This document shows positions 5,257 to 12,146 of a stretch of DNA of 12,146 bases, in pieces. The stretch comes from Nitrospinota bacterium (GTDB taxonomy: Bacteria; Nitrospinota; Nitrospinia; Nitrospinales; VA-1), in contig JAYNIA010000065.1 of NCBI GenBank assembly GCA_038108555.1, positions 1 through 12,146 of the forward strand, written 5' to 3'. The position numbers and the translations under genes were made by a program. Numbering within the stretch: the stretch's first letter is position 1; every line of letters begins with the position of its first letter. The notes under the pieces were generated by a model, which saw nothing but the letters and a program-made list of their open reading frames with translations, did no database searches and was not told the DNA's origin.

Positions 5257-6108
5257 TCAGCCAAAAAGAATTGAAAGATCATTTTTCAGGTTTGCCTGAA
5301 TTTTTGAGGGATCGGTGACGACCGCCTGTTTTGCTGCATCTGCACAACAGCAAGAATCCACATTATCCAACATGGGAACCAGTTCATTGATAACCTTTTG
5401 CGCTCTTTCAACATTTTGATGCATGATTTCAAGAACAGCCTCTAAGGTCACCGGTTCTTCTTCTATATGCCAACAATCATAATCAGTGACCAATGCCAGG
5501 GTTGAATAACACATACCCGCCTCACGGGCGAGTTTTGCTTCTGTCACATTGGTCATCCCGATCACGTCCACCCCCCACTGCCTATAAACATTCGATTCCG
5601 CACGTGTGGAAAACTGCGGCCCCTCAATACAAATATAAGTTCCGCCTTTATGGACAGTGGCCCCTGCTTTCTCGGCAGCTTGGAAAAGGACAGAAGCAAC
5701 CTGACCGCAAATGGGATCTGCCAGACTCACATGCCCCACCATCCCGGTGGTAAAAAATGTTCCGATTCGGCGATGGGTCCGGTCGATAAACTGATCCGGA
5801 ACCACAAAATGTCCGGGTGGATATTCCTCCTTCATGCTACCCACCGCACTTACAGAAATAATTTTCTCAACACCAATTTTTTTCATTGCAAAAATATTGG
5901 CCCTAAAATTTATCTCAGAAGGTGGAATGAAATGCCCAACTCCATGACGGGGAAGGAAAGCCATTTTTTTTCCGCGTAAAGTTCCAAGAATGATTTCGTC
6001 GGAGGGATCGCCAAAGGGAGTTTCCACCTTGACCTTTTCACTGATATCAAGACCTTCCATTTTGTACAAACCACTACCACCAATAACACCCAAAATCTCG
6101 TCTGACAT
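5257..6108 (-). CDS. mtnP: S-methyl-5'-thioadenosine phosphorylase
   Basis: GVIGGSGLY, TPFGDPSD, FLPRHG, AVGS, PDQFIDRT, EGPQFSTRAES, VIGMT..EAKLARE, VTDYDCW. ATG at 6108 follows SD AAGGGAG; the ORF track uses the adjacent TTG at 6111. Confidence 0.95.
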   Translation of the reverse strand: MSDEILGVIGGSGLYKMEGLDISEKVKVETPFGDPSDEIILGTLRGKKMAFLPRHGVGHFIPPSEINFRANIFAMKKIGVEKIISVSAVGSMKEEYPPGHFVVPDQFIDRTHRRIGTFFTTGMVGHVSLADPICGQVASVLFQAAEKAGATVHKGGTYICIEGPQFSTRAESNVYRQWGVDVIGMTNVTEAKLAREAGMCYSTLALVTDYDCWHIEEEPVTLEAVLEIMHQNVERAQKVINELVPMLDNVDSCCCADAAKQAVVTDPSKIQANLKNDLSILFG

Positions 6109-6281
6109 CAATTCTCCCTTTTATTAGATATTGGACTTTTAATGAATAACATTGGGTTTAACAAAAATATTTTTTATTAAAATTTAAAATTGGAATAAAC
6201 AGGATGGCACATCCATTTGAAGTAACAGGATACCAGGGAGAGTAAGGCCTCGCCTTTACCTAATTAAGGAACAATCTCAAC

Positions 6282-8564
6282 TTAACCCGGATTGTTTTTT
6301 TTATTTTCCACTTCACTCAACAAAAATTTCAATTCTGTTATCTGTTCACCGGCTTTGCTGATAACAGCTTCTTCCTTCTTCAGGTTCTGCACCTTGACAT
6401 TCACATCTTCTGCCAGCAGGTTCAACATGCTTAATCGCTTGTCCACCTCATCTAACACATTGATTTTGCTATTTAGAATATCGATTTTCGTTTCTGCATC
6501 TTCAGTGATGGTGGTTAATTTTTCAATATTCAGATTGATTTTATCCAGGTTTTCCCGCTCTTTTTCGATCCTCTCTCTTTCTGCATTTGTGCGGTTGATA
6601 ACGATTTCAAGCTCACCCAGAGCCTGTTGAGTTTTCTTCACCTTTTCTTCATTACTGGAAACTTTGGCGATCCGCGATTCTGTTCTTTCAAGGATATTAT
6701 TGAGGTGGTCCATTTTCTTTTCAATCTCAAGCATGGACTCCTGCTTTTCATCGATGTTCTCCTGGCGCTCCCGTAAGTATTTCATCAAAGCATCCAGTTC
6801 CCGAAGTTTGTCTTCAGTTTTCTCTACCTTGACTGATTCCTTATTGAGCTCTTCTACTTTTTCCTCAAAATTGGAAGTCACTTGCCCAAGTTCATTTCGT
6901 ATCAGATCAATTTTTCCGATCTCATCCTTGGCTTCCTGAACTTCCTTGAACCGTGTGCGTAATTCAATTTCCTGGATACTCAGCTTGGACGAAATATTAT
7001 TCATCCTTTTTTCCTGGTCATCGATGGCCGCTTTCTCTTTTGCAAGGTCTAAAATTTTCTCTTCCACCAGATTTGCCATCGACTTCAAGTCTTCAAGCTT
7101 CTGATCAATTTTCTCAAGAAAGTCGATCTTCTTGGTGACCTTGGCAATTTTGATATTCGCTTCTTCAATGAAGAAGTCAAGACCATCGACCTTCTTTTCC
7201 ATTTTTTCGATCAGTGCTTTTCTTTGCATCTGGGTTTCCATTTTCACATCCAGACTGATCACCATGGAACTGAGGTCATTGATTTTTTTATCGACCTGAT
7301 CCACCAACTGCTGCTTACGGATTATTTCATCCATCTGCTGCTGTGTGGATTCGTTGAGAACATCAACTTGCTTTAAAGTATCTGTAATGGTATCGATCTT
7401 TTTCAGGTCCTGATCCAAGCGCGATACTTTTTGCTCGGCCTCTTCCGCCATCACATTGAACCGCCCCATCCTCTCATTGGCATCGTCAATGATTTTCATC
7501 TCATCCTTAAGAATTTTCATCTTATTGCTAAGATTGTCGATCAGGAAAGAATTCAGCTTGTGGATCTTCTCTTCGGTCTTTTCAATAATAGATTTTTCAT
7601 CGTGTATCCGCGAAATCTTGGTCTCAACGTCAACGGAAACAGAGTCCAGTTCACGCAGGCGACCGGTAACACTGCGGATCAGTTCATTTTTCACAGAAAT
7701 GTTTTTGGATTCTATTTTCAGTTCACTGATCTGTTGCATCAGGCTGTTTAGAGAGTCCTGTGTCTCCTGGATCATGTGGTTCTGTCCCAGCAACCTCTCG
7801 TAATCTTCCTGAACTGTGACCAAAACCTTTTTCAACTCCTCCGTATCGCGGGTATGGTTATCTATGGTTTCCTTATCCTGCTTGATCCGGTCATACTTGT
7901 TCTCCAACTCCACCAAAGTTTCTTTCATCAACCCAATTTTCCCGGAAGCGGATTTCAGGAGGCCTTTCATGTTGACCACATCCTGAACCTGACTCGATAC
8001 ACTATCGAGAATATGCTCCAGTCGGTTCACATTGTGGTCTGCAGATTTTATTAGTTTGGCTTCTTCACGGATCTTTTTGACTTTCGAATCCATATCCCAA
8101 ACCAGCACATTCAAGCGGCCTGCATCTTCGTTGGCTTTTTCTACAATCACGCGTTGCTGGTTCAGGCTTTTGGTTTTTTGGTCCACATGCTCATTGAGTA
8201 GATGCAACTCGTCCAATTCCCTTTTCAGGGTATTGTAATTAGAGGAAAGTTCTTTGGAAATGCGTTGAAAGTCGCGGATGCGCCCATCGAAGGTTTTGAT
8301 TTCTTCAAAACGCACATTTAATGAATCGAGTTTACGAAGGGTATCTGGAACCTGACCGCTCATACGGTCAAAGAATTGTTTTCTTTCATCCATCTCCTCC
8401 GACTTCTTCTCAAAATATTCCACAAGAAGTTGGAGATTTTTGCGTTCGTTAGCGGCCTGCTTGAGCAATTCTTTAAATTCTTTCGGATCAAAGCCAGCAG
8501 GAACTTCTGAGCTCTGTCCGCCTGCCGACCCTCTGGGATTTTCGGTTCCGGATTTTTCTGCCAT
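6282..8564 (-). CDS. Hypothetical 760-aa long coiled-coil protein with 31-residue repeats
   Basis: Long ORF rich in E/K/L/I, with no Pro between residues 74 and 758 and no Cys. No TM segment, signal peptide or Walker A/B motif. SD-like AGGA at 8573-8576 and its own promoter. Confidence 0.92.
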   Translation of the reverse strand: MAEKSGTENPRGSAGGQSSEVPAGFDPKEFKELLKQAANERKNLQLLVEYFEKKSEEMDERKQFFDRMSGQVPDTLRKLDSLNVRFEEIKTFDGRIRDFQRISKELSSNYNTLKRELDELHLLNEHVDQKTKSLNQQRVIVEKANEDAGRLNVLVWDMDSKVKKIREEAKLIKSADHNVNRLEHILDSVSSQVQDVVNMKGLLKSASGKIGLMKETLVELENKYDRIKQDKETIDNHTRDTEELKKVLVTVQEDYERLLGQNHMIQETQDSLNSLMQQISELKIESKNISVKNELIRSVTGRLRELDSVSVDVETKISRIHDEKSIIEKTEEKIHKLNSFLIDNLSNKMKILKDEMKIIDDANERMGRFNVMAEEAEQKVSRLDQDLKKIDTITDTLKQVDVLNESTQQQMDEIIRKQQLVDQVDKKINDLSSMVISLDVKMETQMQRKALIEKMEKKVDGLDFFIEEANIKIAKVTKKIDFLEKIDQKLEDLKSMANLVEEKILDLAKEKAAIDDQEKRMNNISSKLSIQEIELRTRFKEVQEAKDEIGKIDLIRNELGQVTSNFEEKVEELNKESVKVEKTEDKLRELDALMKYLRERQENIDEKQESMLEIEKKMDHLNNILERTESRIAKVSSNEEKVKKTQQALGELEIVINRTNAERERIEKERENLDKINLNIEKLTTITEDAETKIDILNSKINVLDEVDKRLSMLNLLAEDVNVKVQNLKKEEAVISKAGEQITELKFLLSEVENKKNNPG
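6285..8207 (-). repeat. Protein-level tandem array of about 20 x 31-aa coiled-coil repeats (residues 120-760)
   Basis: Manual register gives 18 units of exactly 31 aa, one of 32, one of 35 and a final partial unit. Hydrophobic residues recur at positions 1, 4/5, 8, 12, 15, 22, 25 and 29, and K is frequent at 11. Confidence 0.85.
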
Positions 8565-8696: not shown

Positions 8697-9710
8697 CTAG
8701 CGGGAAATCAACAATTCTGCAATCTGGACAGCATTGAGTGCCGCCCCTTTTCTCAAATTATCGGAGACTACCCAGAAGTTGACAGCCCGGTCCCGGGAGA
8801 TATCATCACGGATACGACCTACAAAAACTTCGTCCTTATTCTCCCCATCTGTTGCCAGGGGATAGGCATTATTTTCAGGATCATCGACCACACAAACTCC
8901 CTCCTGACTGGACAAAAGATCTTTCACCGCAGCGGCGGTAACAGGTCCCTCCGTTTCCACATTTAATGCCTCGGAATGGGAGTAGAAAACAGGAACCCGG
9001 ACGGTGGTCGGGCACACCTGAATGGAATCATCGCCCATGATCTTTCGAGTCTCATTGACCATCTTCATCTCTTCCTTCGTGTACCCATTATCCAAGAAAA
9101 TATCTATATGTGGCAAACAGTTATAAGCAATTTGATGAGGATATACATTAGATGAAACATCCTTCCCGTTTTGCAATTCCAGCACCTGGGTTTTCAATTC
9201 ATCAATCGCTTTTTGTCCTGACCCTGAAACGGATTGATAGGTAGAAACAACCACCCGTTTGATCTTGAATTTCTCGTGGATGGGTTTCAAAGCAACCACC
9301 ATTTGAATGGTGGAGCAATTTGGATTGGCAATGATCCCTGGCTTTTCTCCAATGGCATTGGGATTGACTTCAGGAACCACCAGAGGAATATCGGACTCCA
9401 TTCGATAAGCACTGCTATTGTCTATGACAACGCAATTCGACTTCACCGCATCGGGAGCAAATTTCCGGCTGATACTTGCTCCTGCCGAAAAAAGGGCAAT
9501 GTCTACATCTTTAAAAGAGTCGGACTTCAACTCTTCGACAATAATTTTCTCACCTTTAAACTCCAGTTCACTGCCAGCCGACCGGGCGGATGCCAACAGC
9601 TTCAGTTTATCTACAGGGAAATTCCTTTCCTGAAGAATTTCCAGCATTTTCCTTCCCACCGCTCCGGTAGCTCCAGCGACAGCTACATTGTATTTTTCTT
9701 TTTTCTCCAT
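8697..9710 (-). CDS. asd: Aspartate-semialdehyde dehydrogenase
   Basis: VAVAGATGAVG, VIDNSSAYRM, PLVVPEVN, catalytic IANPNCST, STYQSVSGSG, NGYTKEEMKM, VRVPVFYSHSE, DNLRKGAALNAVQIAE. Confidence 0.98.
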   Translation of the reverse strand: MEKKEKYNVAVAGATGAVGRKMLEILQERNFPVDKLKLLASARSAGSELEFKGEKIIVEELKSDSFKDVDIALFSAGASISRKFAPDAVKSNCVVIDNSSAYRMESDIPLVVPEVNPNAIGEKPGIIANPNCSTIQMVVALKPIHEKFKIKRVVVSTYQSVSGSGQKAIDELKTQVLELQNGKDVSSNVYPHQIAYNCLPHIDIFLDNGYTKEEMKMVNETRKIMGDDSIQVCPTTVRVPVFYSHSEALNVETEGPVTAAAVKDLLSSQEGVCVVDDPENNAYPLATDGENKDEVFVGRIRDDISRDRAVNFWVVSDNLRKGAALNAVQIAELLISR

Positions 9711-11818: not shown

Positions 11819-12146
11819 TTAATTCAGTTGGATCAGGTTTTGAATCCTTTCTATCAAGGCATCTGCATCCGCAGCAGAAATTTTCTTGCCGCTTTGTGCC
11901 TGAATGGAATTAATCAATGCCTCAAGAGAATTAACTCCAGCCTTATCATTCTTAGAGTTGGAATCACTTAACATTTTATCTGCTGTTTTCAACTTAGAAC
12001 TCAAACTACCTTCGGTTCCCCGAGGAAGATTTAAATCAGCAATGTCCTCTCCCAACCCATCAATTATTTCAGCCGGACTCAAAACAATAACCGCCTGAGT
12101 TGCGGTGGAATCGTTACCCGCTTCGTCCGTCGCCGTCCAGGTCACG
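11819..12146 (-). CDS. C-terminus of a probable secreted/surface protein: end of a HYR/Ig-like domain plus a C-terminal helical (FIMAH-like) domain; 5' end outside the window
   Basis: VTWTATDEAGNDSTATQAVIV is the typical HYR/Ig-like last-strand motif. SLSSKL...N.LEALINSIQAQSGKKISAADADALI matches a small helical tail found on many secreted bacterial proteins. The frame is open to the window edge. Confidence 0.75.
   Translation of the reverse strand, partial: VTWTATDEAGNDSTATQAVIVLSPAEIIDGLGEDIADLNLPRGTEGSLSSKLKTADKMLSDSNSKNDKAGVNSLEALINSIQAQSGKKISAADADALIERIQNLIQLN

Follow-up and report, generated by a model that had tools for sequence, protein, structure and literature searches.

A stretch of 12,146 nucleotides from a nitrite-oxidising bacterium (Nitrospinota contig JAYNIA010000065.1; the window) carries on its minus strand a gene for an all-helical protein of 760 residues (P0001), most of which is built from tandem 31-residue units. 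This feature is real, conserved, and structurally unusual. Its hydrophobic period is 3.44-3.46 residues and not 3.5, which supports the period of 31/9 (31 residues in nine turns) proposed in a sequence-only reading of the window. The protein, called the 31-mer protein below, is a member of an uncharacterised, length-conserved family in several bacterial phyla, and possibly a new internal scaffold.

The 31-residue repeat

The interval 6285-8207, in which the sequence-only reading had placed a coiled coil with a strict 31-residue repeat, corresponds to residues 120-760 of the open reading frame (ORF) at 6282-8564. The four units quoted there are all present in the protein, at residues 151, 306, 493, and 714. 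The count of 20 consecutive units from residue 120 was reproduced by an unsupervised 31-column alignment, with 17-18 units of exactly 31 residues. In the unsupervised parse there are 17 units of 31 residues and one each of 32, 28, and 38. The earlier parse of 18 units of 31 plus one of 32 and one of 35 is equally valid: the same 66-residue stretch, residues 493-558, is split otherwise. A further unit was confirmed at residue 68, and another starts at residue 44. Self-similarity peaks at lags of 31, 62, and 93 (z of 12.0, 11.1, and 8.8), and the protein ranks first for lag 31 among the 1452 ORFs of at least 250 residues in the genome. No 93-bp tandem repeat was found in the gene at the DNA level; this means that the repeat is old. 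Apart from the likeness of the first and last units, no higher-order super-repeat was supported.

The Fourier spectrum of hydropathy over residues 120-755 has its peak at 3.456, with a power of 639 as compared with 5 at period 3.5. Against 100 shuffles, a peak power of 633 compares with a maximum of 129. (A shuffle of 7-residue blocks does not preserve heptad phase, hence it was not counted as a control.) The period is 3.44-3.45 in regular stretches and rises up to 3.476 across the 32-residue unit. The controls from the same genome, the SMC protein (period 3.49) and two chemoreceptor-like coils, peak at 3.49-3.50, and no 31 spacings occur in the SMC protein and one of the chemoreceptor-like coils.

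The core positions 1, 5, 8, 12, 15, 22, 25, and 29 of the unit, and the polar positions 18-19, were found as described earlier; position 4 (88% hydrophobic), position 21 (69%), and a near-constant basic residue at position 11 had been missed. A unit profile was taken from the 16 exact units in 17 Nitrospinota and 52 distant sequences. Positions 1, 15, 22, and 29 are hydrophobic in 87-96% of the former and 73-92% of the latter, and hydrophobicity is partial at positions 4, 5, 8, 12, and 25. Polar or basic residues occupy positions 11, 18, and 19, basic ones position 28, and acidic ones positions 9 and 23, with position 26 also acidic in the Nitrospinota sequences. On a 31/9 helical wheel, position 15 would point at the axis, flanked by the pairs 11/12 and 18/19. 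The polar character of residues 18 and 19 might be due to their straddling the core around this axis-pointing position. The fixed 7+7+7+10 arrangement of the earlier reading could not be sustained, since its stammer cannot be placed: the profile is compatible with a stammer distributed along the repeat or with one in the vicinity of positions 29-1-4. In the latter case, which would be the alternative to the wheel, the stammer would be local and would add a layer to the core, as in L1ORF1p (PMC5940361).

The core repeats every 31 residues, that is, nine turns or 4.6 nm, and the calculated supercoil pitch of approximately 67 residues is tighter than that of a heptad coil (98 residues). In L1ORF1p and the OMP100 stalk, a three-residue insertion likewise overwinds the left-handed coil (PMC5940361, PMC4786415). 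These proteins have one local stammer, whereas the 31-mer protein has one per 31 residues, approximately 20 in series. The same papers describe stammers as rare, local, and destabilising, and known non-heptad coils as lying mostly above 3.5. A lower limit of 3.33 is given in PMC4786415, according to which delocalisation could relieve the strain of a stammer. A survey of coiled-coil periods up to 40 might include 31 (PMC9369452). With some 20 stammers in series, this natural rod would allow one to test directly how a coil copes with sustained overwinding, and its short fragments should suit crystallography.

The family and its relatives

When 1.84 billion representatives were searched with a profile, 822 matched at E ≤1e-3 and 72 at 1e-30. 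Among the best 150 of the 822, many are proteins of 820-930 residues collinear with the query at 12-20% identity, and the period and phase profile are conserved down to this identity. Of the 2717 unit spacings in 142 held-out locus homologues, 1930 equal 31. When the profile of the Nitrospinota proteins is aligned with that of the distant ones, the match covers 732 columns (probability 100%) and has hardly any gaps from residue 104. A word-index search with wide alignment was insensitive (5 matches).

Three conserved landmarks (Table 1) lie at nearly fixed distances. The spacing from the first to the middle one is exactly 283 residues in 56 of the 62 full-length members with hidden Markov models (HMMs) that include these members, and in 33 of 62 with Nitrospinota-only HMMs, the weak scores of which often pick another unit. 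The spacing from the middle to the last landmark differs by 0, +1, -3, -4, or -20 in 59 of 62. The lineage differences on this C-terminal side (-3, -20) are probably located mostly in or just after residues 493-558. In the first landmark, the family signature, L123, K130, Q137, and A144 are each conserved in at least 90% of 69 members. The C-terminal landmark resembles it at an offset of 594. The N-terminal helix (E40 in 84% and R41 in 74% of the 62 members) is retained even in long forms with approximately 110 extra residues; this lineage-specific expansion sits in residues 44-119. P0061, P0068, and P0069 are longer still (1072-1157 residues). The top self-similarity of P0061 and P0068, at lags 95 and 93, corresponds to duplications of about three units, which means that the length is not absolutely fixed.

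Within Nitrospinota, 27 of 41 relatives in a first set carry the gene, as do 71 of 92 genomes overall, including 47 of the 57 of high quality and all nine families. There is nearly always a single match per genome, double matches being complementary pieces, and full-length proteins have approximately 745-764 residues. The suggested synteny with asd and mtnP holds in Nitrospinota, where the gene is usually placed between the two, but not elsewhere. Thus mtnP follows in 30 of the 30 top loci and asd precedes in 29; in eight more distant loci picked by hand, the numbers are six and five. A functional link to asd or mtnP was rejected because the synteny is limited to this lineage. Insertions between asd and the gene were recognised by eye: what looks like a small toxin-antitoxin-type pair (L007:558-1099) and transposase-like remains (L011:47-1298).

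Five genomes without a match were checked. Two have asd directly beside mtnP, and two are without asd at the site. In G081, a single-contig genome, what is left between asd and mtnP is the start of the gene joined to approximately its last 35 codons (L140:2506-2690), although an assembly artefact is possible for this remnant. The clean losses mean that the gene is dispensable in some lineages. Seven genomes, some near-complete (G066, G080, G082, G083, G092, G093, and G094), have the gene and no flagellin match, and several show the reverse pattern; a flagellar role was rejected on these grounds. The losses and the presence without flagellin fit an accessory, non-flagellar role.

Outside Nitrospinota, members are named in Fibrobacterota, Gemmatimonadota, and Vicinamibacterales. 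For Vicinamibacterales, 311 stretches were confirmed, and most of the 79 loci shown are titled Vicinamibacterales or Acidobacteria. In an Acidobacteriota sample (four candidates scored per genome), 8 of 201 genomes match, so that the distribution there is patchy. Eisenbacteria is a lead only, from an Atlas search, and a further Atlas search gave only leads below 0.9. No match was found in the plasmid or phage collections. Unlike the Nitrospinota genomes, G103 and G223 have two full-length paralogues each. The signature, the landmarks, and the natural deletion lineages now define the family, so that the possible scaffold becomes testable in Nitrospinota, Vicinamibacterales, and Gemmatimonadota.

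The contexts seen in Vicinamibacterales are comM/secA or pgsA/hflX, and in the three of seven Gemmatimonadales-type loci that were read the neighbours vary. In about half of the Vicinamibacterales loci L054-L131, the gene lies near an aldehyde dehydrogenase, a bacterial microcompartment (BMC) shell cluster, and an SLT-LysM gene, all on the opposite strand. A microcompartment link was set aside, as the strand differs and the BMC locus is not part of the second context common in Vicinamibacterales. Two Gemmatimonadales-type loci (L150:2504-3663 and L153:1580-2610) have upstream a 263-residue protein with multiple transmembrane (TM) segments, without a Pfam match, and a small helix-turn-helix (HTH)-like gene.

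The sequence-only reading had proposed a new family. This stands insofar as the family is uncharacterised: no confident full-length match to a characterised family was obtained in NCBIfam, Pfam, or the PDB. In Pfam there were only sub-cut-off matches, none of them of the HEAT/PBS type. The PDB sequence searches gave only partial, generic coiled-coil matches (7 and 98), the best with E of 1e-9 to a designed protein. The repeat itself is not unique, as it also occurs in the SpiroCoCo C-domain and in a fusion to a TolB-type propeller. The best NCBIfam match, NF047515 (SpiroCoCo C-domain; E of 1.9e-33), scores 116 bits, below the cut-off of 125. Four collinear relatives are above it (P0004, 130; P0011, 137; P0083, 133; P0093, 145), three are below, and all 45 distant members match the profile. 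NF047514 (SpiroCoCo N-domain) gives 66 bits, below its cut-off of 75, with the best stretch at residues 518-607 against profile positions 60-149 of 221. LA_3659 (NF047516) also gives 66 bits and passes its cut-off of 36, via partial internal matches to profile positions 60-149 of 221 only; a pipeline could therefore name the protein an LA_3659 family member. As had been expected, the names given to relatives are "chromosome segregation ATPase" and "SbcCD ATPase subunit", where they are not simply called hypothetical. The 31-mer repeat explains both this mis-naming as SMC or SbcC and the make-up of the SpiroCoCo C-domain profile.

One true SpiroCoCo protein was retrieved (P0171, 1063 residues). 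Its sequence comprises a hydrophobic segment at the N-terminus, a pair of 31-type units close to the start, a hendecad-like middle of approximately 500 residues (period 3.62-3.67), a C-domain (approximately residues 786-993) with 31-spaced units and a period of 3.45, and a weak DUF6115-like tail. In an hhalign comparison, the start of this C-domain was matched to the family signature (probability 91%, E of 1e-6). Along P0171 the period switches from 3.44-3.49 to 3.62-3.67 and then to 3.45, implying left-handed, then straight, then overwound left-handed segments if the periods are translated into supercoils. The two proteins thus share the 31-residue module, this one SpiroCoCo member being compared. 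P0171 has an anchor, a hendecad stalk, and an HTH-like tail, whereas the 31-mer protein is without all three; its maximum hydropathy over 19 residues is 0.55, in contrast to 2.26 in P0171. Furthermore, its period is 3.44-3.48 from end to end, and the SpiroCoCo profiles match it in part and at several places. SpiroCoCo membership was rejected, since the tests of score and of architecture failed. A further protein, P0054 (1163 residues), puts the repeat to a membrane-spanning use: a beta-propeller of the TolB-like kind is joined to a TM segment close to residue 399 and, on the cytoplasmic side, to 20 of these 31-residue units; a word-index search for its relatives returned only P0054 itself. In the open literature (subscription journals being largely uncovered), no publication was found on SpiroCoCo, the 31-mer family, or a 31/9 coiled coil.

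The rod and its possible role

The size given by the sequence-only reading agrees with calculated lengths of 93 nm (residues 120-744) and 109 nm (residues 27-757). No TM segment or Walker A motif is present in 69 of 69 aligned members, in line with its statement that ATPase, hinge, and membrane anchor are absent. A continuous extended coil is highly probable, and the preference for it over a folded bundle is supported. There is no Pro between residues 74 and 758 (685 residues). Among 211 aligned sequences (effective number, Neff, 111), no phase position of the unit has Pro above 2.4% or Gly above 8.2%; that is, there is no regular turn. Helical hairpins or bundles of the spectrin, EzrA, or chemoreceptor kind, or a 31-residue solenoid, would be suggested by the same period in two HEAT-like proteins of the host genome, by hydrophobic flanks at positions 4 and 21 that could pack extra helices, by Pro in 38-46% (weighted) of the family at two single columns (374 and 485), and by weak PDB matches that include chemoreceptor hairpins. 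However, the hydrophobic phase runs unbroken through the units, there is neither a phase-locked Pro/Gly turn nor any Pro in 685 residues of this protein, and no antidiagonal or i+31 coupling was seen, at low power. Such a fold seems quite improbable. The HEAT/PBS-type solenoid in particular was rejected for want of phase-locked Pro or Gly and of any such Pfam match. The two HEAT-like proteins (C24:975-2093 and C83:4386-5498 of the host genome, G000) are near-identical to each other and unrelated to the coiled coil.

The same alignment bears on how the chains pack. The strong negative covariation of charges at i+3 and i+4 (t about -10) is that of a helix. At i+2, core-straddling pairs give -0.157 (t -5.2), as compared with -0.053 for back-straddling pairs and -0.037 for the off-register null, and covariation is also seen at i+12. 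Covarying pairs at i+2 and i+12 cannot touch within one helix; this points to parallel, in-register chains, a packing that we regard as probable. One flank of the rod is net basic and the other net acidic. The oligomer may be a dimer, trimer, or tetramer. A dimer would agree with the long polar residues in the core (PMC13580157) and, by the Ile/Leu rule, with Leu at position 1 and Ile/Val at position 22. The large residue that faces the axis would rather favour a trimer or tetramer (PMC9858780, on hendecads).

In the proposed model, the protein would be a cytoplasmic, non-enzymatic rod in which identical chains, parallel and in register, are wound together as a single left-handed coiled coil, unbroken over its 93-109 nm. 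What the sequences show is the period, the phase-specific pattern of core and charge, the conserved length and landmarks, and the lack of hinge, anchor, and ATPase; the coil, its packing, and its role are inferred from these. The rods would dock on one another or on a partner via the three conserved landmarks at their fixed spacing. Docked in this way, they would form an accessory structure, either a scaffold or a filament comparable to those of crescentin or FilP, of benefit to the cell but not essential to it. This putative role is considered the likeliest job and is held with moderate confidence. Crescentin, FilP, and Scy are likewise long, non-enzymatic, cytoplasmic coiled coils, a description that the sequence of the 31-mer protein also fits; filament formation is demonstrated for these three and proposed for the 31-mer protein. 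The crescentin match is generic and partial (E of 1e-5, among the 98 coiled-coil matches). FilP and Scy have hendecads (above 3.5), Ala-rich cores, and a DivIVA-like head, whereas the 31-mer protein is below 3.5, has a Leu/Ile/Val core, and lacks such a head. The intermediate-filament (IF) type of heptad/hendecad rod with stutter, head, and tail was not found: the period is 3.44-3.46, and the Nitrospinota forms have no tail. SF-assemblin has a repeat of 29 residues, and the Giardia median-body protein has one of 24/7. These two and beta-giardin likewise have long tandem non-heptad repeats in structural fibres (for SF-assemblin, PMC2119799), but they are eukaryotic, have other periods, and show no sequence relationship that could be found to the 31-mer protein. 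Crescentin (PMC10873595) and FilP (PMC6599971) are bacterial coiled-coil cytoskeletal proteins, and FilP and Scy are described as also departing from heptads (PMC9858780).

Several points weigh against the scaffold model or the packing on which it is built. All 112 of the retrieved proteins of at least 380 residues peak at 3.438-3.468, with lag 31 on top in 81, but the matches were gathered with a periodic profile, so that the shared period is partly circular. The charge signal at i+5 does not discriminate (core-straddling -0.083, back-straddling -0.10). Direct (mean-field) coupling analysis is underpowered with Neff of 111 for 656 columns, and the Nitrospinota-only subset is too small for covariation (Neff 11). 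The kin are non-independent, and the t values are thus overstated. No long-range charge zoning of the IF kind was seen, no partner gene common to the phyla was found among the neighbourhoods compared, and the host genome already has two full-length MreB-family genes for rod shape (G000 C2:91031-92002 and C45:19799-20776).

The same rod might instead stay discrete and, without polymerising, serve as a ruler or tether by which two partners are kept a set distance apart, approximately 42 nm from the first to the middle landmark or 88 nm between the ends. The exact 283-residue spacing in 56 of 62 members and the likeness of the terminal landmarks would suit this role, as would the use of the repeat as a stalk behind the membrane anchor in P0171 and in the TolB-propeller fusion P0054. 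However, no partner gene is co-conserved in the neighbourhoods compared, the N-terminal part differs in length by approximately 110 residues from phylum to phylum, and a fixed length is equally expected of a filament subunit; we consider the ruler unlikely. There is still less to favour an ATPase-less chromosome organiser or nucleic-acid-binding filament associated with the nucleoid or SMC. It would agree with the weak SMC/Rad50 profile matches, with the pipeline names, and with the end of the SpiroCoCo relative, which looks HTH-like and weakly matches DUF6115 (E of 7e-4, below the cut-off). But the SMC matches are far below the cut-off (39 vs 567 bits), no member has Walker A, the net charge is -24, the host genome has its own SMC with a period of 3.49, and the 31-mer protein is without the HTH tail. 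This reading is thus very doubtful. Membership in SMC/Rad50/SbcC itself was rejected on the missing Walker A (69 of 69) and the scores far below the cut-offs.

Returning to the scaffold model, its boldest form would be a bacterial cytoskeletal polymer not described before. It would be built from a natural coiled coil that keeps up the overwound 31/9 period over approximately 100 nm, is length-locked across at least four phyla, and has its repeat module in common with the membrane-anchored SpiroCoCo rods (named after spirochetes). This form is tentative and would be somewhat surprising. If true, it would lead to one ancient repeat superfamily with soluble and anchored forms.

Gene layout and neighbouring genes

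Table 1. Parts of the 31-mer protein gene and its immediate neighbours (window positions)
Feature	Positions	Strand	Basis
31-mer-repeat protein gene (P0001), 760 aa, all-helical	6282..8564	minus	ORF; orthologues open over their full length throughout Nitrospinota
Residues 1-26, variable Pro/Gly/Ser-rich head, probably disordered	8487..8564	minus	sequence; poorly conserved, gappy
Residues 27-47, conserved N-terminal helix	8424..8486	minus	conservation in 62 full-length members
Residues 44-119, irregularly spaced repeat units (spacings 24, 52; starts 44, 68)	8208..8435	minus	
Residues 120-744, 20 tandem units, 31/9 period, ~93 nm	6333..8207	minus	
Residues 120-167, family signature, most conserved stretch	8064..8207	minus	
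Residues 337-368, 32-residue unit (one-residue insertion)	7461..7556	minus	
Residues 417-462, second (middle) conserved landmark	7179..7316	minus	
Residues 493-558, irregular 66-residue stretch (31+35 or 28+38)	6891..7088	minus	
Residues 714-752, C-terminal landmark	6309..6425	minus	
asd, upstream neighbour in Nitrospinota, context only	8697..9710	minus	
mtnP/PNP-family phosphorylase, downstream neighbour in Nitrospinota, context only	5257..6111	minus	

The codon use of the gene ranks 92nd of 1436 in the genome, a weak sign that suggests fairly high expression. At one edge of the window, a FIMAH-like C-terminal fragment, below the cut-off, enters on the minus strand (11819-12145), and at the other edge a cytochrome c554-type gene leaves it on the same strand (3-392). 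Elsewhere in the host genome are two genes that, judged by their N-termini, resemble nxrA and nxrB.

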